A stretch of 64,000 nt of DNA from Candidatus Saccharimonadales bacterium (GCA_050730875.1 JBOHNX010000002.1:92805-156804); one strand, 5' to 3'; shown: positions 6,376 through 60,467, numbered from the stretch's first letter. Numbers and translations: made by a program. Notes: generated by a model not told the origin, from the sequence alone.

Positions 6376-7014
6376 ATGACCGCCTGGACATCGCAATTAA
6401 AACTGGCTGCTAACCACCTTTTGGCGAATGACGCTGTACTTGCACCGATAATCAAAGCGCACGGGCTCTGCACTATCGAGCCGCACAGCAATTACTATCA
6501 CGAACTGGTTGATTCTATTATTAGTCAGCAACTCAGCATTAAAGCCGCGGCAACTATTGCAGGGCGTTTTCGCGATTTATTTGGTGGTAAATTTCCCTCG
6601 CCAGAAGAGATCTTGACTAAAGATACTGAGGAACTTCGCACCGTTGGCCTTTCGCGCGCCAAAGCCACCTATGTGCGCGACCTTGCGCAGCACATCATTG
6701 ATGGTGAACTGGATATCGAGAATCTACCACATTTAAGTAACGAAGAAATTATCCGCGAGCTAACTGCAGTTAAAGGCATAGGCGAATGGACTGCCCATAT
6801 GTTTTTGATGTTTAGCCTGGGCCGATTGGATGTGCTAGCTGTTGGTGATTTAGGGATTCGCAACGGCGTGATGAGACTATACGGCTTACCAACTCTTCCC
6901 GATGCTAGTGGGGTGCGCGCCATCGCCCTGCAAAACAACTGGCACCCATACGAGACCATTGCCTGCTGGTACGTCTGGAAATCGCAGGACAACGCGCCGC
7001 TTAGCGCGGAGTAG
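6376..7014 (+). CDS. DNA-3-methyladenine glycosylase II-like (AlkA-type HhH-GPD)
   Basis: LTAVKGIGEWTAHMFLMFSLGRLDVLAVGDLGIRNGV is a HhH-GPD motif with an Asp. The ATG at 6376 removes an implausible 60-aa extension that overlaps the upstream gene. Confidence 0.7.
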   Translation: MTAWTSQLKLAANHLLANDAVLAPIIKAHGLCTIEPHSNYYHELVDSIISQQLSIKAAATIAGRFRDLFGGKFPSPEEILTKDTEELRTVGLSRAKATYVRDLAQHIIDGELDIENLPHLSNEEIIRELTAVKGIGEWTAHMFLMFSLGRLDVLAVGDLGIRNGVMRLYGLPTLPDASGVRAIALQNNWHPYETIACWYVWKSQDNAPLSAE

Positions 7015-7645
7015 CGCTGACGTAGTTAATTGGCGTGCCTTCCGCCATAAACCGACGTTCGTAGTAGGTGGTGATTTTGTACTCGTCTGGCAGGTCGCTT
7101 TCGTGGAGGTCAAAGTTGAGTTCTTTAATGTCCCAGTTTTGCGCGATTAGCTGCTCGAGACTCCACAGGAATAATTCGCGGTTGTCAGTTTTGAAGCGAA
7201 TTATGCCACCGTCATCTAGAATATTGCGATATTGTTGCAAAAAGCTTGGATGCGTCAGTCGGTGTTTCGCCTGCTTTTTGCGTGGGAACGGGTCTGGGAA
7301 AGTAATCCAAAGTTCTTTGATTGAGTGCCTCGCAAACAAATCTTCTATTTTGTCGAGCTGCGCGCGAACAAACGCAATATTTTTTATGTCTTTTTCCAGC
7401 GCACGTTTTGCGCCAGTGTAAAGCCGATCCGATTTTATATCGACCCCTACAAAGTGCCGGCGTGGATATTGCTTAGCCAGCTCAACGCTTAAATCAGCCG
7501 ACCCAGCGGCGATTTCTACCGTTAGTGGCTTCTTCCACTGCGCTGGATCCACCTCATCTTGCTGGAAACAATTCGGCCACTCGTCAAAATGGGCAAACTT
7601 CCATTTTTTACGCTTGCGAGTAATAAAAAGTTTATCGTTTTCCAT
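7001..7645 (-). CDS. trmB: tRNA (guanine46-N7)-methyltransferase
   Basis: 214 aa. VEIAAGSADLSVELAKQYPRRHFVGVDI ... WITFPDPFPRKKQAKHRL is typical of TrmB. Confidence 0.85.
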   Translation of the reverse strand: MENDKLFITRKRKKWKFAHFDEWPNCFQQDEVDPAQWKKPLTVEIAAGSADLSVELAKQYPRRHFVGVDIKSDRLYTGAKRALEKDIKNIAFVRAQLDKIEDLFARHSIKELWITFPDPFPRKKQAKHRLTHPSFLQQYRNILDDGGIIRFKTDNRELFLWSLEQLIAQNWDIKELNFDLHESDLPDEYKITTYYERRFMAEGTPINYVSATPR

Positions 7646-7649
7646 GCAT

Positions 7650-7808
7650 AGCCAGCGTAATACAAAACCCGTCTCATAGCCAGATGATCTGAGCGAGTCA
7701 GAACCTTTCAGACTGAGTGAGGCATAACCGTCGTTACGTTGAACGAAGGCTGGAAGTTTCTGGCCGGTCAGGCGCTGGGTAGGAGGCGGGTTTTGTGTTG
7801 CGGTGGCT
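7650..7808 (+). ncRNA. candidate rod-shaped structured ncRNA (6S-like architecture; class unassigned)
   Basis: 7650-7683 pairs with 7775-7808 (34 positions: 28 Watson-Crick, 3 G-U, 3 mismatches). Pairing continues inward (7688-7692/7768-7772, 7697-7711/7750-7764) to an apical hairpin 7728-7735/7742-7749. The G-U pairs would be A-C mismatches on the minus strand. Confidence 0.45.
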
Positions 7809-8274
7809 ATCTAAATTTAGTGAACCAAAAAACACCGTAAGCCACAAACCCGCCCACGGTATTTGCGAGCAGGTCCCACCATTCATCCCCTTCTTCAATC
7901 GGCGAGATGCCAGTTTTATCTAGAAAGAGCTCAAACAATTCGTTCAGTACACCAAGGCCGCTGACAAAAAAATACAGCGCGAGCACCTGCAGCCACCAGG
8001 TTGCGAATTTTATTTGATACACGCGAGTGACGTACAAAAATAAAATTGTAGCCACAACGCCGCCCGTAAAATGCATGGTAGTTGTGTCAGTCTCCGGCGA
8101 AATCGGTACATTTGGCAGCGTCATCGCCAGCACCCACGCAATCGCCGCCGCCCACAAGTAGCCAGCATGCTGCATGTACGGCAACTGCCTAGTTTTGTCG
8201 GTCGCAAAAACATAGCGCACCAAAACCCATGGCATAAAAAGCAGGGCGAGTGGAATAAGCACGGTATAGATCAT
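7807..8274 (-). CDS. polytopic membrane protein, possibly VanZ-like
   Basis: 155 aa with 4-5 TM helices. The C-terminal WWDLLANTVGGFVAYGVFW resembles the VanZ family. Weak call. Confidence 0.35.
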   Translation of the reverse strand: MIYTVLIPLALLFMPWVLVRYVFATDKTRQLPYMQHAGYLWAAAIAWVLAMTLPNVPISPETDTTTMHFTGGVVATILFLYVTRVYQIKFATWWLQVLALYFFVSGLGVLNELFELFLDKTGISPIEEGDEWWDLLANTVGGFVAYGVFWFTKFR

Positions 8275-8292
8275 GGCTTTAAGTATACCTGT

Positions 8293-9603
8293 TTAGGGCG
8301 CTAAACGGTTGATATCACGAGGGAACAGGGCGGCTTCTTTGACGTTTTTGAGGCCGATGATTTTTTGGGTGAGGCGCTCGAGGCCCATGCCAAAACCGCC
8401 GTGTGGTGGGAGGCCATACTTAAAAGCGTCGAGGTAATATTTGAAACCCAGATTTTCAGGGTCGCCGCCGGCCATGCCGCGCAGTTGCGTTACTAGTTTG
8501 TCGTAACGGTGTTCGCGCATGCTGGCGGTTGCGATTTCGACGCCGCGGAATAAGAGGTCGGCGCGCTCAGCAACGGTTTGGTCGTCATCTTTAAACTTGT
8601 GGTAGAACTTTGCGCCTTCACGTGGCCACTCGGTTACAAATACAGCTTCGCTTTTTAGGTTGTCTTTTGCCCATTCGCAAATCCAGCGCTCTTCGTCCGG
8701 CCGCAGGTCTTTTTCGCCTACAGTGTTTTCGCCTGTGGCTTCCGAGTATTTTTGGTGGATTTCTTCCATCGAGAGCTGCGGAATTTTTTTAGGCAGCAGT
8801 GGCTTTGTGGCGTTCCAAAGCTTTAGGTTGTCATCGCAGTTTTCCCACACATCGTCTACGACAGCGTTAAGTAATCCACTCATAAAGTCGAGGAGCTCTT
8901 GCAGATCCACAAAGCCCATTTCGGCATCGATATGGATGAATTCGGTCATGTGGCGGGTGGTGGCGCTGAGCTCGGCACGGTAGGTTGGGTTGATTTCGAA
9001 CGCGCGTTCGAACACGCCGACCATAATCTGCTTATAAAACTGTGCACTTTGCGCCAGGGTTGCATCTTTGCCAAAGTAGTCGAGCTTGAAGACCTCTGCC
9101 CCACCTTCGGTTGCGCCAGGTAACAATTTCGGCGAGTTAAATTCGGTAAAATCGTTGGCGCGGAAATATTTGCGGGCAGCTTCTTTGACCTCTGCTTGCA
9201 CCTTAAAGATGGCTTGCTCTTTTAGGTTGCGCAGGCCCACCACGCGGTAATCAAACAGGGTGTCGAGCGATCCGGACTCGTGGCCGAGCGGTTTGTCGAT
9301 TTCGATTGGCGATTCGTCAGTAACCGGCACTTCGATAGTCAGTGCAACTTCGTGAAGCTCCACACCACCTGGTGCGCGTTCGTCAGCAATGGCTTTGCCT
9401 TCAAGTGTTAGCACGGTGCCAAGCTGCATACCACGCAGCTTTTCGACTTCGTCTTTTTCTTTAATGAGCGCCTGAGCAATACCCGAACGATCACGAACCA
9501 CAATAAACGTTAAGCCGCCAAGCAGACGCTTTTTGTGCAACCACCCCTGGACGGTAACTTTTTTATCAACGTGTGATTTGAGATCTTTTATGAGCGTACG
9601 CAT
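8293..9603 (-). CDS. aspS: aspartate--tRNA ligase, archaeal/short class IIb type (possibly non-discriminating)
   Basis: 436 aa. N-terminal OB fold, LAQSAQFYKQ, class II motif 3 GLPPHGGFGMGLERL and C-terminal FPRDINRLAP. Confidence 0.8.
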   Translation of the reverse strand: MRTLIKDLKSHVDKKVTVQGWLHKKRLLGGLTFIVVRDRSGIAQALIKEKDEVEKLRGMQLGTVLTLEGKAIADERAPGGVELHEVALTIEVPVTDESPIEIDKPLGHESGSLDTLFDYRVVGLRNLKEQAIFKVQAEVKEAARKYFRANDFTEFNSPKLLPGATEGGAEVFKLDYFGKDATLAQSAQFYKQIMVGVFERAFEINPTYRAELSATTRHMTEFIHIDAEMGFVDLQELLDFMSGLLNAVVDDVWENCDDNLKLWNATKPLLPKKIPQLSMEEIHQKYSEATGENTVGEKDLRPDEERWICEWAKDNLKSEAVFVTEWPREGAKFYHKFKDDDQTVAERADLLFRGVEIATASMREHRYDKLVTQLRGMAGGDPENLGFKYYLDAFKYGLPPHGGFGMGLERLTQKIIGLKNVKEAALFPRDINRLAP

Positions 9604-18991: not shown

Positions 18992-21900
18992 TTAACGTAT
19001 TTGGAGTTCGACAAGGCCAAATTCTGGATCGGCGATGGCATCGCCGGTGATGCCGACAACTCGGAGGAAGACATCACTTTTTGCGCCACCGGTTACAGTA
19101 ACCCAGCTCGAAACCTTGAGGCCGGTAGTATCAATAACCGTTGAAGGACCCGTGCCGCCATCCAGATAATTCCACGTGCTTTGGTCAGTCGAATACTGCA
19201 CACGCAATTCCGAACCCGTGGCCCCAGCCGTTTTGACATTGGCCACGAGGCGAACTTGCGCAGCATCCGAAAGGTCAAACTTGGTGCGTGATGAAGTTTG
19301 GCCAAGGAATTCTGTCAATGCTGCTGGCATATTTGTCCAAATGGCGCCATTCGTACTGTTGAAGTTAGCCGATTCGTTCATGCCTAGGCAATTCTTCCAG
19401 GCACCCCCTTCGTAACAGCGGAATTTGCCAGTATTGGAATTATAGTACATGCCGCCGTTTACGCCGGTTGGGTCGCCCGAAGTGTTTTTGTGGTCGAGAA
19501 TGACCAATGCAGGCGTGCCGTCTGCGCCGACGTCGCCGCCGCCAATCAGAACCCGCATATCGACAGTGTTGACCGTAAATACCGAGGCAGCTGACGAATT
19601 GAGAATACGGAAAGCAGTCGTTGAATTTGTATTGGTCTGGAAAAAGACAACACCGCTTTGGGCAATGTTCATCACTTCGGTACCACCCTTGCGCACACTG
19701 AGGATATCCATGGTCGACGCGGCGTTTTGGTTGATAATCGCCGCAGTACTGGTGGTATTAAGTGCATTCACGTCGAGTGTTGCGCCTGGAGTTATGCTGC
19801 CAATGCCGACGCGTTTGTTTACGGCATCGACACCAAACAGTGCTTGACCAGACGCATCATGGACTTGCAGCACGTTGGTCGAGTCGTTATCGTTTTGGAC
19901 CGCAACCGGTCCCGTGAAGGCAAGTGCGCCAGAATTGAGTTTGCCATCGAAGAACGCGCCAATGTTGCTGGCCTGCACAATTTGCAGCGCATCTATCCAT
20001 ACAGTTCTTGCTGTACCGGTATCGCCGTCTTCAAAATAAAAGTATGGCGTGCCGCTAATAATGCCGGCGGTCGTAAAGGTACATTCGTAGCGAGTCCAAC
20101 CCCCGGTTGCAACGGTTTGGCTGCTCTTGCAATCGGTCTCGCCACCGACCGTGCCGTCTGATGAATAACCAAAACGCATGGTGGTGAGTGTCCCGCTGGA
20201 GAGTTTCGCGTAGAACGATGCTGCATATTGCGTGCTGGCTGTGAGCGTTACGTTATACTGCGCACCGGAGTTGGCACTGCTTGAGCTTGTCAGGGTTTCG
20301 AGCGACGCCTGGCCAACATAGCTTTGGGTTGTTACACGGCCAACCGTGGCGCCACCTTTACCTGCCCAGTTCGTGGAACTGATCTCGATACTACCGTTTG
20401 TTACGAGATCGCTTACGTTATGGATAGTGCTAAGGCTTAGTAGTTGCTGACCGGCAGCGTTCACAACCTGAAGAGCATTCGTAGAGTCAGTCGTGGTCCG
20501 AATGGTCGCCAAACCATTGACCGACAGATTACTATTTACCACTGCCCCATTGCGGAACATGCCTTCGCCACTGACGTGCAGATTACCAGATATGAAAGTG
20601 TTGCCTGCCGTCAAAGTACCGGCAGAACTACCATCTGCCATGCCTTCGCCACTGTAGCCTAGTAGGTCAAGCGACGCGCCAACCTTCACCCGCGTGCCGC
20701 TCGCATACCACACATTGCTTTGCGCACCTGCGTTATAACCGCCTATGGCGTATATGTACCCGTTAATAACAGTCGCGCCCATACCACTCCGTGCAGCCGT
20801 GAGGGCTGTGCTATCGGTCGTCCAACTGCCTACTGAACCATCGTTGTTTAGCGGAGCATAGTGCACCGTGCCAAGCGTCGTGCCAGTGCCGTCTATACCG
20901 CCGAGCACGTACATGTAGCCATTAGCAACTGCCGTCGCAAGACTGTAGCGGGCAGCCGCAATGGCACCGGTGGTTGCCGCAGCGATAGTTCCATCTGCGT
21001 TAATCTTTCCGTAATAGAGCGTACTTTGTGCCGCGGTGCCAGTATTTGTACGGCCACCGGCCACATACAGGTAGCCGTTTGCTATTTGGATACTGCCATT
21101 GTTAACTACTGTCGGCAACCAGCTTGATAATGTTGAAAAGCTACCTATTGTGCCGTCTGAGTTAATGCGCGCGTAGTAGATATTTTGGTTGTTTACACTG
21201 CCGAGCGTTTGACCGCCTATTACGTACAGATAACCGTTGTAGGCGGTCATGGTGTGGTGACGAAGGTCAGTCGGGAGCGTTACGTCGAGGGTGCGCCAGG
21301 AGCTTATGGTACCATCGCGATTTGTACGGCCCATGTAAATATCGTCAGCAGTGCTGGCAGACGACGTACCGCCAGCAACGTATATGTAGCTATCGTAGCG
21401 GGCAAAGCCAGCGTTGCAATTGGTATTTGTTAGCGCAGTTGTGGTACCCCACACTCCAATCGAGCCATCACCGTTAACAGGCGCATACTGGGCAGTGTTC
21501 GTTCGGGCGCCCGCTCCATCGCATCCTCCTAACGCATAGAGGTATCCTTGATGGGCGATAACGCCATGGCTTTCACGAGCACCCGACAGTGAGTTCGCGT
21601 TAGTTGCAAAGGCGGCAATGTGTCCAGTGTTATTGCCAAATAATGACAAGATTGAATCGCTGCTGTTAAGCCCAACGAGCTCTCCGCTTGCTGCGTTTAA
21701 TATACGGAAAGCAGTTGATGAATCAGTGCTGTTTTGGAAGAGTGCCTGACCGGTTGTATTAACTTGCGCAAGAAGAGTTGAACCATTGCCAATCTTCAAT
21801 GGTTGGTCGGGGAAAAGGTTGCCTATTGCAACAAAATTATCTTTTATTTTCAGCCCGTTGGTACCTGCGGTCTCAATACGGAAGTAATCGTTGGTGCTAT

Positions 21901-24900
21901 CCCACTGCAAGTAGCCATTTTGACCAGCCGTGGTAGAATCGCCCAGGATTAAACGCGGGTTGTTGCCATTGTTATAGATTGCGGCATCGCCATCGATTAC
22001 CTCGAATTTCGAAAACGCCGCCGTTCCGCCCACACCAACCCGTTGGTTGGTAGTATCGACGTTAAGGACACTGCTGCCAGTAGCGTTGAGCACGCGCAGC
22101 GCATTGACTGAGTCGGCGGAATTTTGGAAGGCAATCTGGCCCGTGTTGCCAACCCCAAAGAGGATGTTACCAAGGCCAGCACCGTTGCTGGCGCGAACGT
22201 TCAGCAAGTTAGCGCCAATGGTGCTGTTTGCATCCTGAATATCAATGGCCCCCCGTGTTGCATCAAGTTTAATTTCCGGTGTTGTGCCGCCTACCGAGTT
22301 TGTGTATGAGGTTTGCAGCGTGCCGCCAGCGCCGGCACAGTTACCAGTAGAAAGACACACGGTGCCGCTCTCATCAGGGAAGGTAACGGTGCGGTTAGCG
22401 GTTGCCGTAGCAGAAATAAGGGTAATTGCATTGGCGTTCGTGGCGTTAGCAAATACCAGCTTGCCCGACAGAGCACTCGACTCACCCAGCACTAATTGGC
22501 CGTTCGTGGTATCAACCGTCGCAACGCGCGAACCGATACCATTTAGCACACGCAGCGCCGTTGTGCTGTTGGCTGCCTGGAAGGTCGCCGAGCCACTTCC
22601 ATCCAGCACCAACGAGTTAAGTAGCCCGGTTGTTAAGTAAATACCGCTCCAACCAGAAAGCTGCAGTTGGTCCGTATCGGTCGTATTGGCTTCACCAACA
22701 TACACCAACCCGCCGCTCCCAAATTGCAAGCGGCCACCCGCTCCGTTAATGCCGGTTCCGTTAATAATCGTCTGGTTATTGGTTGTGTCGACTGTCAAAA
22801 GAGCATTGCTGGCGGCATTCAGCACCCGCAGCGCCGCTGTAGAATTAGCTGAATTTTGCAGTGTTACCTGGCCCGTGTTGCCGACCCCCAACAAGATATT
22901 GCCCAAGCCCGCTCCATTGCTGGCGCGGATGTTTAGCAGGTTAGCAGCAATCGTCGTGTCAGCATCCTGGATGTCCAATCCAGCCCGGGTGGAGTCAAGT
23001 TTAATTTCTGGCGTTGTACCACCGGCCGCATTATTGTACGCAGTTTGCAACGTCGCCCCAACGCCGGCACAATTGCCACTTGAGGTACAAAGGTCGTAGG
23101 TACCCGCTGTGAGCGCCGGCAGGCGAAGTGTGGTGTTCGCAGTCGGCGCAGTAAACGAAAGCGTCGTCGTATTGGCGCCAGAGGTTGCCGAAAGCGTTGT
23201 ACTAGCACCACCTTGGAGCGTCAGCGTTTGGGTAGTTGCACCAACTGTCAGCGTTCCGCCAGGCGTAATGTTGAGCGCACCACCCGCTGTAATATCGCCA
23301 CCGTTCACTGCTAAGTCGCCCGTTAGCGTCGTATTGCCCGTCACGGCCAGCGTTCCGCCCACGCTGGTATTGCCGCTCGCGCCCACCACGTCGAAGTTTG
23401 TAAAGTCAATATTGCCAGTTGTACCTACAATATTATTGGCGCCAACACTCAAGGCATCGCCAATCTCGGCATCACTGGCGTCAATGCCGGTTGTTATGCC
23501 TCCGGTTGCTGCCTGGATCTTGATGCCGACGGGCACGGCGCGGTTCAGATCTAAATTATCAACCAGCAGTAATTGCGCGGGGTCAGCCAAACCTGTGCCA
23601 TTTGCACGTACAAACGACGTAAAACCAGTGCTGTTATCGGCCGTGGTAATCGTAAAGTTAGGGTCGGTCGTCCAGTCCGCCAAGGTGAGCGTCAGATCGC
23701 GGGCATCGGTAGTAAGGATAGTATTGCCGGCATCGTAGGCCGCCTGCAAAGTGTTTGGTGAGCCAGCCCCAGAGCAGTTACCACTGGTGAGACAAATGGT
23801 ACCGTTCTGGTCTGGCAAAATGTACGTGCGGTTAGCCGTCAGCGCTCCTTGAATAATGGTACCGAGGAACGAAGAGCCGCTGTGGGCAAAGTGAAGCGAA
23901 CCAGTTTGGCTGGCCGCGACACCAATGGTGGCGTCACCTCCTTGGATGATTAAATCGACACTCGTGGTTACACTGGTGCCGTCGTCAGTAATGGTTGAGT
24001 CTGCAATCGTTTGCCCTGCCGTAAATTTGGCTAATCTGTTTGTCGTGCCACCGGGCGTCGTAACACCTCCACCCACACCAGTACAGTTGCCGGCAGTCGT
24101 ACAAATGTCGTAAGTGCCAACACCGGTCGTCAGCAACCGGTATGTCACATTGGCGGTTGGCGCTTGAAACGCCAAAGTAGTGGTATTGGCGCCGCTGGTT
24201 GCGGTCAGTGTTGTTGAACTGTTACCCTGCAGCAATAAGTTCTGGCCGGTAGATCCGACTGTCATGGCGGCGCTTGGCGTAATTGTGTTTGCGTTTAACG
24301 TACCGGTAACGGCTGCTCCCCCGTTTAGGTTGGCTGCACCAGCAACAGCTACCGAACCCGTAAAGTTGGCGGTGCTCGAGATCGTTTGCCCATTAATACT
24401 GCCGCTTACGGTCATATTACCCGCGGGCGTAACGTTCAACCGGCTTACGCCACTTTGCTGTAGGTCGAGCAAGTTACCCGTCGCAGCGCCATTTGTATTA
24501 TTGACGAGCAACATCGGGCTGCTTGCCTGCGAAGATGTAAGTGTTAGCCGACCAAATGTCGGCGCAGCGGTGGTATTAATATCTTGAACCGTATTTACAG
24601 CGCCAGAACTCGCCGTAAAGTTAGTCGCGTTAAAACTAGCGATGCCTTTAGCAACGGTTGACGCATCGTTGATAGTAATCGTGCTCCCTGCACCGCTGGC
24701 GTTCGCAATCGTCAGCGCCCCTGTCAAGCCGTTGACCGAAGTGACACCTGCACTGCTTGGACACGCCGCAAAAGCAGGCGCACCAGCCGTAGACAGCAAA
24801 CAAAGGCCAGCACCCCCGGCGGTTACGGCAGTCAGTGCGCCCGAGCCTTGGCCAACAACCACGCCATTATTTGCGAGCGATGTCGCCCCTGTGCCGCCAC

Positions 24901-25930
24901 TGTTTACGCCGAGCGCCGATGAAAGCGATAGACTGCCCGTTACACTCAAGTCGCCGTTTACCGTAACAACCGTGCCACTTTCGCTAAGAAGCGAATCGGC
25001 GATTGTTTGCACGCCGGTGAATTTAGCAATCCGGCCAGCAGTGCCACCAGGGCTCTGCACCGTGCCGCTGCCACCACCGACATCGCTGATGGTGAGGTTC
25101 CCGCTTCCGTCGTTACTAACAATTAAGCTCGCCGAACCAGAAGCAAGGCTGTTTACACCACTGTTGCGTAAAGTGCCGTTCGAAATAGCCAGGCCACTAC
25201 CCAACGTAATGTCACCCGTTTGCCCGCCAATCGAAAGAACTCCTGTGTTGGTAAGGGTCGTGCCGTCGATTGCAATGCCACCGCCACTCGTCAGATTGAC
25301 GTTCCCTGTTTGGCCTTGCAGCGCTAGCACACCGGAATTACTTAATTGTCCGTTACTGAGCGCCAAGCCACTCCCCACGCCCTGTAAAGTGCCACTGGAA
25401 TCGGCCACTGTTACAAATTCTGTCCCGTTAAAATAAGAAAGCTGGTTAGTGGTTTGGTTGTAATAAATCTGGCCGGGTGTCCCAGTACTCGGCTGGGCCG
25501 ATGGCGAGAGGATGAATGCATCATTCAGCTTAAGCGGGCCGTTAATCGTGAGGTTGCGCGTCCCCAGCAAACTCAGGTCGCCTGATTTCGCAAATTCTTC
25601 CAGTGGGATTTGCACGCTTTCAAAACGATTAGCAACAGTTGTCGGCACTTCACGCCTATTGGTAATTGTGCCGATTGTGAGCCAAGTGCCGCCGACAAGC
25701 AACAAGGCCAGTACACCGATCCCGGCGCGCTTTACAAGGCCCGGGAAATTACGTGGTTTTGAAACAGGCGGTGGTGGAGGCGCCGCGGGCGTAGGCGTAG
25801 GCGAAAACGAATCCGAAAACGGCGTCGGGCTGAAGGTCGCTGCGGGTTGCCCAACACTAGCAGAAGCCGTAGCTTGGTCACTACGGTTGTTCACATATGG
25901 AACACCTATGTCCTGAATTTTATTTTCCAC
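18992..25930 (-). CDS. giant surface protein (2312 aa): N-terminal Pro-rich tail and TM, fibre repeats, Kelch-like beta-propeller, CBM-like domain
   Basis: Uninterrupted 6.9-kb ORF. TM GIGVLALLLVGGTWLTI. Four G(T)Y(D)xC..(S/T)GNC.G.G motifs. At least 7 F(R/Q)(V/I)LN...VDT.N modules. Six Kelch-like blades (YLYALGG, YIYVAGG, YLYVIGG, YLYVAGG, YMYVLGG, YIYAIGG). A CBM4/9-like segment (QYAASFYAKL...WTRYECTF...VWIDALQI). Confidence 0.85.
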   Translation of the reverse strand: MENKIQDIGVPYVNNRSDQATASASVGQPAATFSPTPFSDSFSPTPTPAAPPPPPVSKPRNFPGLVKRAGIGVLALLLVGGTWLTIGTITNRREVPTTVANRFESVQIPLEEFAKSGDLSLLGTRNLTINGPLKLNDAFILSPSAQPSTGTPGQIYYNQTTNQLSYFNGTEFVTVADSSGTLQGVGSGLALSNGQLSNSGVLALQGQTGNVNLTSGGGIAIDGTTLTNTGVLSIGGQTGDITLGSGLAISNGTLRNSGVNSLASGSASLIVSNDGSGNLTISDVGGGSGTVQSPGGTAGRIAKFTGVQTIADSLLSESGTVVTVNGDLSVTGSLSLSSALGVNSGGTGATSLANNGVVVGQGSGALTAVTAGGAGLCLLSTAGAPAFAACPSSAGVTSVNGLTGALTIANASGAGSTITINDASTVAKGIASFNATNFTASSGAVNTVQDINTTAAPTFGRLTLTSSQASSPMLLVNNTNGAATGNLLDLQQSGVSRLNVTPAGNMTVSGSINGQTISSTANFTGSVAVAGAANLNGGAAVTGTLNANTITPSAAMTVGSTGQNLLLQGNSSTTLTATSGANTTTLAFQAPTANVTYRLLTTGVGTYDICTTAGNCTGVGGGVTTPGGTTNRLAKFTAGQTIADSTITDDGTSVTTSVDLIIQGGDATIGVAASQTGSLHFAHSGSSFLGTIIQGALTANRTYILPDQNGTICLTSGNCSGAGSPNTLQAAYDAGNTILTTDARDLTLTLADWTTDPNFTITTADNSTGFTSFVRANGTGLADPAQLLLVDNLDLNRAVPVGIKIQAATGGITTGIDASDAEIGDALSVGANNIVGTTGNIDFTNFDVVGASGNTSVGGTLAVTGNTTLTGDLAVNGGDITAGGALNITPGGTLTVGATTQTLTLQGGASTTLSATSGANTTTLSFTAPTANTTLRLPALTAGTYDLCTSSGNCAGVGATLQTAYNNAAGGTTPEIKLDSTRAGLDIQDADTTIAANLLNIRASNGAGLGNILLGVGNTGQVTLQNSANSTAALRVLNAASNALLTVDTTNNQTIINGTGINGAGGRLQFGSGGLVYVGEANTTDTDQLQLSGWSGIYLTTGLLNSLVLDGSGSATFQAANSTTALRVLNGIGSRVATVDTTNGQLVLGESSALSGKLVFANATNANAITLISATATANRTVTFPDESGTVCLSTGNCAGAGGTLQTSYTNSVGGTTPEIKLDATRGAIDIQDANSTIGANLLNVRASNGAGLGNILFGVGNTGQIAFQNSADSVNALRVLNATGSSVLNVDTTNQRVGVGGTAAFSKFEVIDGDAAIYNNGNNPRLILGDSTTAGQNGYLQWDSTNDYFRIETAGTNGLKIKDNFVAIGNLFPDQPLKIGNGSTLLAQVNTTGQALFQNSTDSSTAFRILNAASGELVGLNSSDSILSLFGNNTGHIAAFATNANSLSGARESHGVIAHQGYLYALGGCDGAGARTNTAQYAPVNGDGSIGVWGTTTALTNTNCNAGFARYDSYIYVAGGTSSASTADDIYMGRTNRDGTISSWRTLDVTLPTDLRHHTMTAYNGYLYVIGGQTLGSVNNQNIYYARINSDGTIGSFSTLSSWLPTVVNNGSIQIANGYLYVAGGRTNTGTAAQSTLYYGKINADGTIAAATTGAIAAARYSLATAVANGYMYVLGGIDGTGTTLGTVHYAPLNNDGSVGSWTTDSTALTAARSGMGATVINGYIYAIGGYNAGAQSNVWYASGTRVKVGASLDLLGYSGEGMADGSSAGTLTAGNTFISGNLHVSGEGMFRNGAVVNSNLSVNGLATIRTTTDSTNALQVVNAAGQQLLSLSTIHNVSDLVTNGSIEISSTNWAGKGGATVGRVTTQSYVGQASLETLTSSSSANSGAQYNVTLTASTQYAASFYAKLSSGTLTTMRFGYSSDGTVGGETDCKSSQTVATGGWTRYECTFTTAGIISGTPYFYFEDGDTGTARTVWIDALQIVQASNIGAFFDGKLNSGALAFTGPVAVQNDNDSTNVLQVHDASGQALFGVDAVNKRVGIGSITPGATLDVNALNTTSTAAIINQNAASTMDILSVRKGGTEVMNIAQSGVVFFQTNTNSTTAFRILNSSAASVFTVNTVDMRVLIGGGDVGADGTPALVILDHKNTSGDPTGVNGGMYYNSNTGKFRCYEGGAWKNCLGMNESANFNSTNGAIWTNMPAALTEFLGQTSSRTKFDLSDAAQVRLVANVKTAGATGSELRVQYSTDQSTWNYLDGGTGPSTVIDTTGLKVSSWVTVTGGAKSDVFLRVVGITGDAIADPEFGLVELQIR
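22000..23100 (-). repeat. internal tandem duplication within the giant gene (unit about 735 nt)
   Basis: About 22030-22365 and about 22770-23100 are clearly similar at DNA level and encode GGTTPEIKLD(A/S)TR...IQDA...NLLN(V/I)RASNGAGLGNIL(F/L)GVGNTGQ...ALRVLNA...VDTTN twice. Confidence 0.7.
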
Positions 25931-32933: not shown

Positions 32934-33247
32934 ATTTGCCTGCAGAAAAGTTTTTTTGAGTGAAAAACTTTAGCATTCCAAAAAGCCAGCAGGCTAATAG
33001 TGAAGAGTTTTACGGTCATAAAATTCTACATACGGTCGGCTTGTCATTGTGAAATGCCACAATCTACGCCTCACCTCCGTTTGTAATTACCCTTCACCTA
33101 TGTTCTAATGGAACTGCAGGTGCTTGGGTGAAGTTACTGCTGTGCGCAGACGCACACTGTGTTTTGATGCATCGTGTGAAGCAGGTGAGCAGTTTTTTCT
33201 CAAAGCGGTCGTGTCCTGCTTTAATTTTTTTGAATAAGGAAACGTTC

Positions 33248-33577
33248 ATGGCAGTAAAACTCTATGTTGGCAACCTACCCTACTCGACTACCGATTCTGA
33301 CTTGCAAGAGCTGTTTGGCCCGTTTGGTACTGTAGAATCAAGCGTGGTGATTAGCGATCGTGATTCTGGCCGCTCGAAAGGGTTCGGATTTGTCGAACTA
33401 AGCAGCGCCGATGAAGCGAAAGCTGCAGTCGATGCCCTCAACGGCAAAGATTACGGTGGTCGCGCCATTGTGGTAAGCGAAGCTCGCCCAATGGAAGATC
33501 GTCCAAAACGCACCGGTGGTGGCTTCCGCGGAAACGGCGGTGGCAGCGGTGGCGGCTTTCGTCAACGCAGCTGGTAA
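33248..33577 (+). CDS. RRM-type RNA-binding protein with Gly-rich tail
   Basis: KLYVGNLPYS (RNP-2), KGFGFVEL (RNP-1), and a C-terminal GGGFRGNGGGSGGGFRQ tail. AAGGAA SD before the ATG at 33248. Confidence 0.85.
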   Translation: MAVKLYVGNLPYSTTDSDLQELFGPFGTVESSVVISDRDSGRSKGFGFVELSSADEAKAAVDALNGKDYGGRAIVVSEARPMEDRPKRTGGGFRGNGGGSGGGFRQRSW

Positions 33578-34973: not shown

Positions 34974-35169
34974 GGTGTGGAGAAGACGAGCTTCATATCT
35001 TGCTCGCTCGTAGTTCGCTTCGCTCACCTCGCTCGGCCAAGCATAGATTACATAGACTGCCACTGGCAGTCTATGGGCGCCAGGTTGGCTGGACAATTCC
35101 TTGGAGCTTGTTAAGACGAGCGGGCGCCAGGCGGAAAACCAACTCTGGCGCCGAGGGACCGCACACACC
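34974..35169. repeat. structured intergenic element containing the third copy of the conserved 45-nt core found in the tRNA-Asn modules
   Basis: 35001-35043 (TGCTCGCTCGTAGTTCGCTTCGCTCACCTCGCTCGGCCAAGC) is about 90% identical to 58437-58480. Flanking helices: GGUGUG/CACACC (34974/35164), TAGACTGCC-ACT-GGCAGTCTA (35053-35073) and GGCGCCAG...CTGGCGCC (35123-35152). Confidence 0.5.
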
Positions 35170-36835: not shown

Positions 36836-37088
36836 CCCCTTTCGTTTTTTAGTAATTCACTCTGACTAATTGTGCCCCTAAGTAGCGTAAGCGGCTATGA
36901 AATATTTCACTAGACCTTGCCACAGAATAATTTTGGAGGCAGAAAGTGAATTAGTTTTGAGCGAAAACCGTGCAGCGGGAGGAAGCGTACCGGAAGTACT
37001 CTGACGAGCGCTAAGCGGTTTGCAGCCAAAAATAATCAGTTTCTGATCCAAAACTTTATTTTGTGGCAAGGTCTTGTATGCTAAAGCT

Positions 37089-58408: not shown

Positions 58409-58585
58409 TGGCTCCGGGGCGGGATTCGTTCGTATTCTGCTCGCTCGTAGTTCGCTAACGCTCACCTCGCTCGGCCAAGCGAGGATTCCTCACAGCGCCA
58501 CTGGCGCTGTTCGACCCATGGTTCGAGTCCTGTCCAAAAAAACATGTGATCTGTCGACGACCTAATGGTCATCACCAAATCACAT
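58409..58585 (-). repeat. tRNA-Asn 3'-end-containing module, copy A (hairpin, U-tract, conserved core, 20-nt tRNA 3' fragment)
   Basis: 58409-58428 is the reverse complement of CGAAUCCCGCCCCGGAGCCA (the tRNA-Asn T-loop to CCA, one C shorter). The core is at 58437-58480. The hairpin 58544-58585 is near-identical to 59874-59915. Confidence 0.7.
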
Positions 58586-58664
58586 GGCTCACCACGATAG
58601 GGCAAGTTATAACCATAATCAAGCACGATCTGACAGGTGTAGCTGTGCTATAGTGATTTAGATC

Positions 58665-59155: not shown

Positions 59156-59644
59156 CTATCTTACAACTCGCTGGACCTCAAATATTTCCATAATTTTATC
59201 GACAGTTTCGTCGATTGTCATATCAGAATTATCGATTATATAGCCGAAGCTAGGTGATGCAATTCCAGTATCGTAGTGATGCTTTATTCTTGAAACCTCC
59301 CATTCAGACAATTCACGGCCGCCTCTTTTACTTTGGGCTACTTCAAGTCGGGGTGCTAACGTAATAACGACTTTGGGCTGCGTCTCTATTTCTTTTTCAA
59401 AACGATCAAAATCTTTTTGCCTCACCACATAATTAGCCACAACGTCTTTCCCTTGTTTGGTATAGCTATTGATAGTTCGGATTGCTAAGTCCATGGACTT
59501 ATCCAGATCAGTCGCCAAGTTGAAGTTCGGGATTGTGTCGTTGAGATCATCGACATTGATAAAGGCTGCCCCCATACGGTCGGCCAATAACTTTGATGTT
59601 GTCGTTTTACCTGAATTAATACTACCGCTGACGAATATCAACAT
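59156..59644 (-). CDS. P-loop NTPase / small-molecule-kinase-like protein
   Basis: 162 aa. Walker A FVSGSINSGKTTTSKLL. Size and layout resemble shikimate/gluconate-kinase-like AAA proteins. Confidence 0.6.
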   Translation of the reverse strand: MLIFVSGSINSGKTTTSKLLADRMGAAFINVDDLNDTIPNFNLATDLDKSMDLAIRTINSYTKQGKDVVANYVVRQKDFDRFEKEIETQPKVVITLAPRLEVAQSKRGGRELSEWEVSRIKHHYDTGIASPSFGYIIDNSDMTIDETVDKIMEIFEVQRVVR

Positions 59645-59739: not shown

Positions 59740-59915
59740 TGGCTCCGGGGGCGGGATTCGTTCATATTTTGCTCGCTCCTGATTCGCTTCGCTCATGTCG
59801 CTCGGCCAAGCAAGGATTCTTCGCACTGCCACTGGCAGTGCTCAACCTTCGCTTCAAATCCCGCCAAACAAAAATGTGATCTGCCGACGACCTGAAGGTC
59901 ATCACCAAATCACAT
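59740..59915 (-). repeat. tRNA-Asn 3'-end-containing module, copy B (immediately downstream of the intact tRNA)
   Basis: 59740-59760 is the reverse complement of CGAAUCCCGCCCCCGGAGCCA, identical to the tRNA 3' end. Core at 59768-59812. Hairpin plus U-tract at 59866-59915 acts as the tRNA terminator. Confidence 0.7.
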
Positions 59916-59989
59916 GGCTCCGGGGGCGGGATTCGAACCCGCGACCAATTGATTAACAGTCAACTGCGCTACCGCTGCGCTACCCCGGA
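59915..59989 (-). tRNA. tRNA-Asn (anticodon GUU), CCA encoded
   Basis: Manual cloverleaf: UCCGGGG-UA-GCGC-AGCGGUA-GCGC-A-GUUGA-CUGUUAA-UCAAU-UGGUC-GCGGG-UUCGAAU-CCCGC-CCCCGGA-G-CCA. 75 nt. Confidence 0.9.
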
Positions 59990-60029: not shown

Positions 60030-60467
60030 TTACTTTTTTGTAAGTGTGATTAATCTGCTTTTAAATGAGGTTGCGGCATCGGCTAACCCCAGTACCTGCA
60101 GCGAGCCGACAAGTACAAACAAATCATCAATCGCTTTTTGCGACGGTTTTGCAATTTTTTCTACGGCTGTGAAACGTTCGCTTATAAGATCTACCAGCCA
60201 CTTTTCCTGCGACTGGTTAACTTCGCTGAGGCCTTTAAATTCTGCGGCGGTTTGCACCACTTCGAGCGAACGGGCGGAATGATCGCGCTTGCGCAGGTGC
60301 CCTTTTCTGATCAAATTATCTACATGGATTGCGACCGTCGAGACCGACTTATAGCCTAGCCCACGCATAATTTCGCGATAGCTTGGACCGTACCCATGAC
60401 CAGCAATAAAACCATCGATAAAACTCAAGAGTTCGCGCTGTTTTTTAGATGGTCGAGTTTCGCTCAT
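60030..60467 (-). CDS. LexA-type winged-helix DNA-binding protein lacking the S24 peptidase domain
   Basis: KKQRELLSFIDGFIAGHGYGPSYREIMRGLGYKSVSTVAIHVDNLIRKGHL matches the LexA N-terminal domain. The C-terminal 70 aa are helical, with no Ser/Lys dyad motifs. Confidence 0.65.
   Translation of the reverse strand: MSETRPSKKQRELLSFIDGFIAGHGYGPSYREIMRGLGYKSVSTVAIHVDNLIRKGHLRKRDHSARSLEVVQTAAEFKGLSEVNQSQEKWLVDLISERFTAVEKIAKPSQKAIDDLFVLVGSLQVLGLADAATSFKSRLITLTKK

Follow-up and report, generated by a model that had tools for sequence, protein, structure and literature searches.

Correia elements of Neisseria and ERIC/IRU elements of enterobacteria are imperfect intergenic palindromes of 100–150 bp, located beside gene starts and present or absent between strains; they form long RNA hairpins when transcribed and can be tolerated in, or can modulate, operon junctions, where they act in cis as intercistronic mRNA hairpins. 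Correia elements possess 26-bp terminal inverted repeats, a non-palindromic core, and a TA duplication, and are highly repeated. Elements of the IS200/IS605 group carry two separate subterminal hairpins of about 20–30 nt, the active strand being located in the lagging-strand template. 6S RNA contains a large central bubble that mimics an open promoter, with closing and terminal stems on either side. The genomes of Saccharibacteria and other CPR bacteria are among the most compact known. REPINs are REP doublets that form hairpins, are mobilised by RAYT transposases, measure about 70–110 nt, and number tens to hundreds in RAYT-encoding genomes (PMC3116915), and a single-strand mechanism has been described for IS200/IS605 (PMC6006769). 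TIGR arrays consist of tandem units with dual 8–12-nt spacers flanked by box C/D and are located next to a Tas gene encoding a Nop domain (PMC12045711). Literature searches turned up no account of small, non-coding mobile elements from CPR bacteria, Saccharibacteria included.

The 64-kb stretch of DNA analysed here (the window), from a Candidatus Saccharimonadales MAG, harbours two long hairpins, designated rod 1 and rod 2 (Table 1), which together with a homologue on metagenome contig L104 form part of a low-copy family, not described before, of Saccharimonadia insertion elements that are palindromic over their full length. By analogy, a rod would work most like a REPIN or a Correia/ERIC-type element, yet without a clean target duplication and at low copy number. 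Rod 1 is read here, with somewhat better than even probability, as a low-copy REPIN/MITE-like palindromic insertion element of Saccharimonadia, about 165 bp and non-coding, that is selected as a single-stranded hairpin (RNA or ssDNA). It occupies the entire spacer between trmB and an ORF of 155 aa, with 2 nt separating the trmB start codon (CAT on the plus strand, 7643–7645) from the rod base. As originally predicted, the minus strand encodes both neighbours; the assignment of trmB was supported by its Pfam domain, whereas the call of a membrane protein for the other ORF comes from its hydrophobic sequence only. No homologue of the 155-aa ORF was found in any fetched locus.

Table 1. Coordinates of rod 1, its neighbours, and rod 2 in the window
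Feature	Position (nt)	Strand	Remarks
Rod 1, probable extent of inserted element	7647–7811	+	C-ATAGCC...GGCTAT-C
Rod 1, 5' terminal block ATAGCCA	7648–7654	+	Pairs with TGGCTAT 7804–7810; identical in L104-type rod
Rod 1, 3' terminal block TGGCTAT	7804–7810	+	Contains stop codon (7807–7809) of the 155-aa minus-strand ORF
Internal motif CCAG-A-UG, with bulged A 7684 and U.G 7685/7774	7680–7686	+	Pairs with CGCUGG 7773–7778; identical in L104-type rod
Apical module of rod 1	7713–7748	+	Two tandem sheared-type G.A motifs with 2 Watson-Crick pairs between them
Apical hairpin of rod 1, 3+4 bp, loop CGUC	7729–7732 (loop)	+	Sits above the tandem G.A motifs
5' flank CCATG	7642–7646	+	Same pentamer before L104-type rod
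trmB, tRNA (guanine46-N7)-methyltransferase	7001–7645	-	Pfam PF02390
155-aa hydrophobic ORF	7807–8274	-	No Pfam match; ends inside the base of rod 1
Rod 2, divergent family member, 169-nt hairpin	36909–37077	+	Two-sequence model, 28.5 bits, E = 5.5e-5
Apical module of rod 2, GA-G-GA...GA-C-GA around a 19-nt hairpin	36979–37007	+	Geometry as in rod 1 and L104-type rod

Rod 1 (7648–7810, plus strand) folded as a single hairpin of 163 nt with 67 pairs (58 Watson-Crick and 9 G-U). Its minimum free energy was -95.3 kcal/mol, against a mean of -52.1 ± 4.2 for dinucleotide shuffles (z = -10.4), and no other 170-nt window slid along the two strands of the 64 kb (5108 in total; mean -45.3, sd 8.8) was as stable. 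The arms, 7648–7683 and 7775–7810 with 83% Watson-Crick complementarity, confirmed the inverted repeat at the place claimed by the original prediction, and the pair counts given there for 7650–7683/7775–7808 were exact: 28 Watson-Crick pairs, 3 U-G pairs (7658/7800, 7661/7797, and 7672/7786), and 3 mismatches (G.G 7655/7803, A.G 7676/7782, and G.G 7679/7779). The 16-nt one-sided bulge and 8-bp apical hairpin proposed for the upper part, which cost 5.4 kcal/mol and had a pair probability of 0.001, were not upheld. The preferred apex is symmetric, with tandem GA/GA at 7715–16/7745–46 and 7719–20/7741–42 and a short hairpin above, and this is the apex also conserved in the homologues. In both the minimum free energy and the centroid folds, the largest internal loops were the 2x2 tandem G.A motifs. 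Stop codons were present in most frames, and rod 1, being small (the rods measure 163–169 bp, MITEs 100–400 bp) and non-coding with inverted-repeat termini, resembles a MITE in these respects.

Covariance models were built from rod 1 alone, then from two sequences, and then from four. The single-sequence model detected a rod in contig L104 (and also in L105) with 64 bits (E = 2e-13), located directly upstream of trmB and antisense to it, that is, in the same position and orientation as rod 1. The TrmB of L104 shared 48% identity with that of the window, for which the next closest among 5.8 billion proteins was 69% identical; the distance between the two rod-bearing lineages is underlined by their AspRS proteins, with 436 aa and no GAD domain in the window (8293–9603, minus strand) and 588 aa including GAD in the L104-type lineage (L168 2758–4524, plus strand). 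The two rods were about 55% identical (about 45% divergence), the common blocks being ATAGCCA/TGGCTAT, AAAAC/GUUUU, CCAG-A-UG/CG-CUGG with its bulged A and U.G, and the apex. All 54 shared pairs were intact in both rods and 16 of them were changed on both sides, whereas slid controls gave 1–2 double-changed pairs and 32–46% pairing (versus 16 and 100%); the shared structure was derived from the same two rods, which flatters the comparison, but the margin is large. Compensatory pairing as in a REPIN/RAYT hairpin was found, with 16/54 pairs double-changed and 100% of cells paired, and comparison of the rods indicates that the whole length has been kept as one hairpin through compensatory evolution. 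Homologous loci, to which the original prediction had looked for either covariation or a decaying inverted repeat, thus provided covariation and no decay.

Rod 2, detected with the two-sequence model, scored 103 bits after inclusion in the model. Its end is separated by 11 nt from the ATG (37089) of a downstream plus-strand ORF of 429 aa, which from its sequence may be read as MurC/Mpl-like, and it lies at an unrelated locus, indicating that the family is not confined to trmB. When used as a protein query, a spurious ORF inside rod 2 had no match among 1.84 billion representatives. The apical module of all three rods followed the scheme 5'-GA-G(U)-GA-hairpin-GA-(A)C-GA-3', in which the hairpin has 7–8 bp and a loop of 4–5, and ladder views showed two tandem G.A motifs with 1–2 Watson-Crick pairs between them. 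Within 1.46 Mb searched on both strands, the module occurred in a strongly folding context only in these three rods.

The L104-type rod was present in at least 23 independent contigs, always between trmB and mscS, and is therefore not an assembly artefact. A spurious ORF of 60 aa, P0254, is called inside it on at least 20 contigs (for example, L164 3757–3939 and L168 9774–9956, both minus strand), and mechanical ORF listing stretches the N-termini of trmB and mscS into the rod (L104 4729–5418, plus strand); as a protein query against 5.8 billion proteins, P0254 matched its own locus only. The four-sequence covariance model detected no further members in the 704 kb of Saccharibacteria loci searched, blastn of the rods revealed no partial or solo copies in any fetched locus, and blastn searches of plasmid and phage collections gave nothing relevant. 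Viral contigs contained no match to two degenerate two-arm DNA patterns, a hairpin scan upstream of trmB gave nothing comparable in 18 Saccharibacteria loci, and neither blastn nor covariance model revealed anything rod-like in the closest relatives of the window (L001–L003 and L081–L090). TrmB was the entry point to all comparison loci, such that only trmB neighbourhoods were sampled and the trmB-upstream spacer represents about 1 in 10 of the spacers sampled; the shared trmB location is therefore just mildly surprising, although the same orientation and the identical CCATG junction add to the association. Hairpins of other kinds were observed in further Saccharimonadia MAGs, namely a hairpin of 140 nt, the lower stem having 36 bp, in the space between convergent genes (L010 1937–2091, -92 kcal/mol, z = -9.9) and clusters of perfect hairpins (L011 5850–6110 and L012 3990–4190); their sequences are unrelated, and the rod covariance models did not match them.

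The plus strand of rod 1 is the favoured one, the minus strand folding at -60.2 (z = -4.7). The bias of G-U pairs toward the plus strand, noted in the original prediction, stands, with U on the 5' arm in 7 of the 9. Non-canonical positions on this strand are nearly all purines (3 G.G, 2 A.G, and the two tandem GA/GA motifs), the only other oppositions being one C.U and one A.C, and there are three single bulged A residues on the 5' arm; read on the opposite strand, these positions become C.C, C.U, and A.C. Purine-purine oppositions made up 9/11, 10/12, and 8/11 in the three rods, again with bulged A on the 5' arm. Covariance-model scores for rod 1 were 148–198 bits on the plus strand versus 52–80 bits on the minus strand, rod 2 folded at -80.9 (plus) versus -68.5 (minus), and the opposite (minus) strand of the L104 rod had a z of -7.6. 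G-U pairs, purine-purine mismatches, bulged A, and a double tandem-G.A apex on the same strand in 3/3 members, together with the strain substitutions described below, argue for plus-strand selection. The constraint acts on one strand only, plus in the window, and the features that carry it are lost on the complement.

Filled and empty sites, as expected of a MITE, were observed in L104 versus L106 and L108, and in L179 versus L108. The flanks of L106 differed from those of L104 by 2 mismatches in 800 nt (99.7% identity), but L106 lacks the 162-nt rod; L108 represents a second empty allele. On the rod strand, the empty site reads ...GTCATACCATG - GTAT - AATCTATC... (core CCATG - GTAT - AATC) and the filled site ...GTCAT(A/G)C(C/T)ATG - CA(ATAGCC...GGCTAT)AC - AATCTATC... 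(core CCATG - CA(rod)AC - AATC), i.e. the four bases GTAT are replaced by CA(rod)AC. The corresponding junctions of rod 1 in the window are ...TTTTCCATG - C(ATAGCC...GGCTAT)C - TAAATTT. These junctions show that CCATG precedes the element in both lineages, i.e. both type-1 rods (n = 2), whereas rod 2 is preceded by TTTCA; the rod-free relative L083 already possesses GCATGG at the trmB start. No clean direct repeat that could represent a target-site duplication was found between the near-isogenic empty and filled sites. A 9/10 direct repeat, GCTATRCAAT, was rejected as such a duplication, for it depends on a flank SNP, and neither the other allele nor the window contains it.

The nearest relatives of L104 (L161–L163 and one JGI contig, TrmB 79–81% identical) have divergent mscS and trmB with a spacer of 15–24 nt and no rod, and the outgroups L161–L163, L009, L010, and L013 were all empty (6/6), indicating that the empty site is the ancestral state and the rod an insertion. 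Among relatives of the window, the spacer before trmB does not exceed about 25 nt in L001–L003 and L083, and the upstream stop codon of L003, L081, L082, L084, and L090 abuts the trmB ATG or lies within a few nt of it. Rod 1 was acquired by insertion into such a formerly tight gene junction. The MITE-like DNA element that the original prediction had named as an alternative is thus closer to the truth than its main proposal, except that the pairing has been kept by compensatory changes instead of decaying. The interval between AspRS and trmB (7646–9603 in the window; also in L001–L003 and L081–L090) ranges from 17 nt to 2.1 kb with differing lineage-specific ORFs and is a hot spot of variable content among these relatives. 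At the empty site of L106, L161, and L163, which reads ...CCATGGTATAATCTATCACAGATATGG on the rod strand, the 24-nt divergent spacer contains, as judged by eye, an extended -10-like TGGTATAAT 13 nt before the mscS ATG; insertion of the rod turns TGGTATAAT into GGCTATACAAT, and the position of this putative -10 suggests a nearly leaderless mscS mRNA.

Filled and empty alleles were present on both of two haplotype backgrounds, one with L104 (filled) and L106 (empty), which differed at 2/800 flank positions, and the other with L179 (filled) and L108 (empty), which differed at 15/800; the two backgrounds differed from each other at 60/800 positions (7.5%). In L108, a tract of about 175–200 nt around the empty site was identical to the other background, and the identical rods of L104, L169, and L170 lay within identity tracts reaching 333–462 nt into mscS. 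These tracts, around empty site and rods alike, indicate that rod alleles are shuffled by homologous recombination, and the rod is an old polymorphism for which ongoing transposition is not required. Complete identity of the rod in diverged strains was rejected as proof of selection, the tracts of 333–462 nt into the flank making it partly a matter of hitch-hiking with recombination. Two variants of the L104-type rod differed at 5/162 positions (3.1%, compared with 7.5% in the flanks). Three of these substitutions convert A-U to G-U on the rod strand, and the other 2 exchange the bases of one 1x1 loop, G.A becoming A.G. Folding energies went from -77.0 to -74.0 on the rod strand and from -62.2 to -57.3 on the opposite strand. 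In a small sample, the direction of the substitutions matches the family-wide strand bias.

Strand bias by itself is no proof of RNA, since DNA nearest-neighbour parameters gave the same asymmetry (favoured/opposite strand, -47.5/-28.7 for rod 1, -41.3/-34.8 for the L104 rod, and -48.1/-40.5 for rod 2) and G.T, G.A, and G.G are the most stable mismatches in DNA, too. Selection on a plus-strand RNA, as put forward in the original prediction, is thus supported as regards the strand, which may be selected as RNA or as DNA. In favour of a DNA-level intermediate are the lack of a promoter- or terminator-like site in a scan of the plus strand at rod 1, with no arrangement of promoter hexamers conserved between the rods by eye, the host-specific upstream sequence, the antisense orientation to both neighbours, the fixed 5' flank, and the lack of a duplication. 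In favour of an RNA role are the recurring association with the trmB start, the apparently single copy of the L104-type rod, and the lower divergence of the rod than of its flanks. Both rods of the window are on the plus strand, 50 of 60 greedily picked ORFs are on the minus strand, and the GC skew over the 64 kb is -0.03; the minus strand is probably leading and the favoured rod strand the leading-strand template, as weakly as 64 kb can indicate.

According to the preferred reading, an insertion element selected as a single-stranded hairpin, the selected form would be either ssDNA during mobilisation or an RNA transcript, and the hairpin would be recognised through the termini ATAGCCA/TGGCTAT and the double-G.A apex by a REPIN/RAYT-like or HUH-like factor encoded elsewhere. 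The element would be placed directly 3' of CCATG without a clean target duplication, and a resident rod would persist as a presence/absence allele shuffled between strains by homologous recombination. In the window, the self-paired rod would keep the upstream stop codon and the trmB start codon adjacent at the helix base, and it is this self-pairing that may make it tolerable in a compact genome. Against mobility, no multi-copy behaviour was seen: the two copies in the 64-kb window are very divergent, and the L104-type rod was found at one locus only (trmB–mscS). In addition, no clean target-site duplication was detected, no transposase or recombinase domain (including Y1_Tnp) was found among 20 ORFs of 125–244 aa in the window, the population pattern needs homologous recombination only, and rod 2 lacks the CCATG flank. 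The shared trmB location, in part a product of ascertainment, could also reflect function rather than target choice.

Function is central to the possible, though unlikely, case that the rod is a stand-alone plus-strand small RNA gene, horizontally transferred and rod-shaped, with a protein-binding or antisense role. The 5' end of rod 1 lies opposite the translation-initiation region of trmB, such that the RNA could regulate trmB by antisense; the L104 rod and rod 2 would be 5' leaders of the downstream genes, and the double tandem-G.A apex would be a protein-binding site. The G-U pairs, bulged A, and tandem sheared G.A on the favoured strand are indeed what structured RNAs typically show, position and orientation at the trmB start are the same in two lineages whose TrmB proteins are 48% identical, the L104-type rod is apparently single-copy and locus-bound, rod divergence is 3.1% versus 7.5% in the flanks, and rod 2 and the L104 rod are located 11–16 nt upstream of a same-strand ATG. 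Such a gene would nevertheless have to do without a promoter- or terminator-like site on the plus strand, with upstream sequences that differ between hosts and, for rod 1, with neighbours that are both antisense; it is also absent in most relatives, meaning that the rod is not needed for trmB function, while DNA parameters reproduce the strand asymmetry and rod 2 lies at an unrelated locus. A bolder version appears improbable: the rods would constitute a novel class of Patescibacteria genes for structured RNAs, self-contained, horizontally mobile, and about 165 nt long, whose apex binds a dedicated protein (K-turn/Nop/L7Ae-like or another) and which home to CCATG at the trmB start and serve as antisense regulator, guide, or decoy RNA. 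The trmB association in two lineages would then be functional and not a target choice.

The minus-strand mRNA offers another setting, in which an intercistronic hairpin between the 155-aa ORF and trmB would act in cis as an RNase III site, a stability element, or a stop-start coupling device. The minus strand still folds well (z = -4.7, and -7.6 in L104), the base of the hairpin joins the stop codon 7807–7809 to the ATG 7643–7645, and in relatives the upstream stop abuts or is within a few nt of the trmB ATG, but all conserved non-canonical features are on the other strand, leaving C.C, C.U, and A.C to the mRNA strand, the strain substitutions weaken the mRNA-strand fold (-62.2 to -57.3), and L104 has no gene upstream on the trmB strand; this role is quite improbable. 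An inert palindrome, whether an inverted duplication in decay or a product of misassembly, is very improbable. Other Saccharimonadia loci do contain long hairpins, unrelated in sequence, and nothing specific supports this reading; the 54/54 shared pairs maintained over about 45% divergence, 16 of them by double changes, the non-canonical motifs conserved on the same strand in three members, and the independent assemblies of the L104-type rod (at least 23) speak against it.

The original prediction compared rod 1 with 6S RNA, with which it shares size (about 160 nt) and overall rod shape. There is no central bubble, the largest internal loop being 2x2, so that the idea fails on structure too. 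In the proposed Rfam check, neither the whole window at the gathering threshold, in which tRNA-Asn was found, nor 7400–8050 at E ≤ 10 gave 6S, SRP, or any other family for the rod, and searches with each of the three rods at E ≤ 10 returned just sub-threshold noise from plant miRNA precursors and snoRNAs. Housekeeping conservation as in 6S was likewise rejected, the rod being absent in L001–L003, L081–L090, and strains near-identical to rod carriers; it is polymorphic for presence within a species and has two copies in 64 kb. Rod 1 is not a 6S-like housekeeping RNA, and the chance of a known housekeeping rod RNA, be it 6S RNA (SsrS) or a different one such as SRP RNA, is next to nil. Other candidates were also dropped: SRP for lack of an Rfam match, retron msr/msd for lack of an adjacent RT, integron attC for lack of R/L boxes or GTTRRRY, and T-box for lack of a specifier or three-way architecture.

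Among the mobile palindromes, REPINs share with the rod an extragenic, non-coding palindrome that forms one long hairpin in ssDNA or mRNA, conserved ends, and a spacer paired via compensatory changes, and for both the presumed mode of handling is action on the single strand by an enzyme whose gene lies elsewhere. The rod differs in being about 165 nt, with 1–2 copies in 64 kb and the L104-type copy at one locus, and in its head, ATAG instead of GTAG; thus, neither the copy number nor the GTAG head of a REPIN was found. To our knowledge, the double tandem-G.A apex is not a feature of REP sequences. Correia and ERIC elements resemble the rod as hairpin-forming imperfect palindromes beside gene starts with presence or absence between strains, whereas the rod, in contrast to Correia, pairs from end to end, strongly favours one strand, occurs at low copy number, and lacks a clean duplication. 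The likeness to IS200/IS605 lies in strand-specific hairpins that are recognised, insertion without target duplication, and a short fixed sequence immediately 5' of the insertion (CCATG for the two type-1 rods), but there is one 165-nt rod and not two small hairpins, the rods seem to be on the opposite template strand by the IS608 rule, and no TnpA was seen among the 20 window ORFs of 125–244 aa. Tandem G.A (box C/D, K-turn-like) motifs are conserved, too, in the TIGR and box C/D-like guide RNAs known from phages and from Patescibacteria, the phylum in which the rods occur. A TIGR-array reading, prompted by these motifs and the phylum, was rejected against the published definition (PMC12045711): the rod is a single unit with no unpaired spacers, and its immediate neighbours are trmB and a 155-aa ORF without a Pfam match.

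A second non-coding repeat family of about 175 nt, 75–91% identical, is present in the window at 58416–58590 and 59748–59920, with a partial copy at 34979–35070. Each copy begins with GGGGCGGGATTCG, similar to a tRNA 3'-end, and the repeat contains the hairpins GCACTGCCACTGGCAGTGC and ATGTGATCTG...CAAATCACAT; full copies end with ...ATCACATGGCTC. The last 21 nt (TGGCTCCGGGGGCGGGATTCG) of tRNA-Asn(GTT) (59915–59989, minus strand) are repeated exactly 175 nt downstream (59740–59760 and 59915–59935), which looks like a putative att-type duplication left by integration at the tRNA. Beside this region are two minus-strand ORFs, one of 162 aa similar to Zeta toxin/AAA (59156–59644) and one with a LexA DNA-binding domain (60030–60467). 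Elsewhere in the window, an ORF of 2312 aa (18992–25930, minus strand) contains internal 236-nt repeats (22116–22351 and 22848–23083, 73% identical), and the rod-bearing genome encodes a protein of 149 aa (33128–33577, plus strand) with a eukaryote-type RNA recognition motif (RRM_1, E = 1.4e-24).

For annotation, the rod explains spurious short ORFs such as P0254 as well as N-terminal extensions, and it cautions against labelling such rods 6S RNA. With genomes so compact, a tolerated non-coding insertion of 165 bp is informative, and the rod family provides a clean natural experiment, the same gene start being occupied in two deeply diverged lineages, with filled and empty alleles segregating on the same haplotype and with conservation of a non-canonical motif specific to one strand. 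Should the true selected form be RNA, the rods would represent a new structured RNA with a likely protein partner; should it be ssDNA, they would point to an unrecognised single-strand mobilisation system in CPR bacteria.
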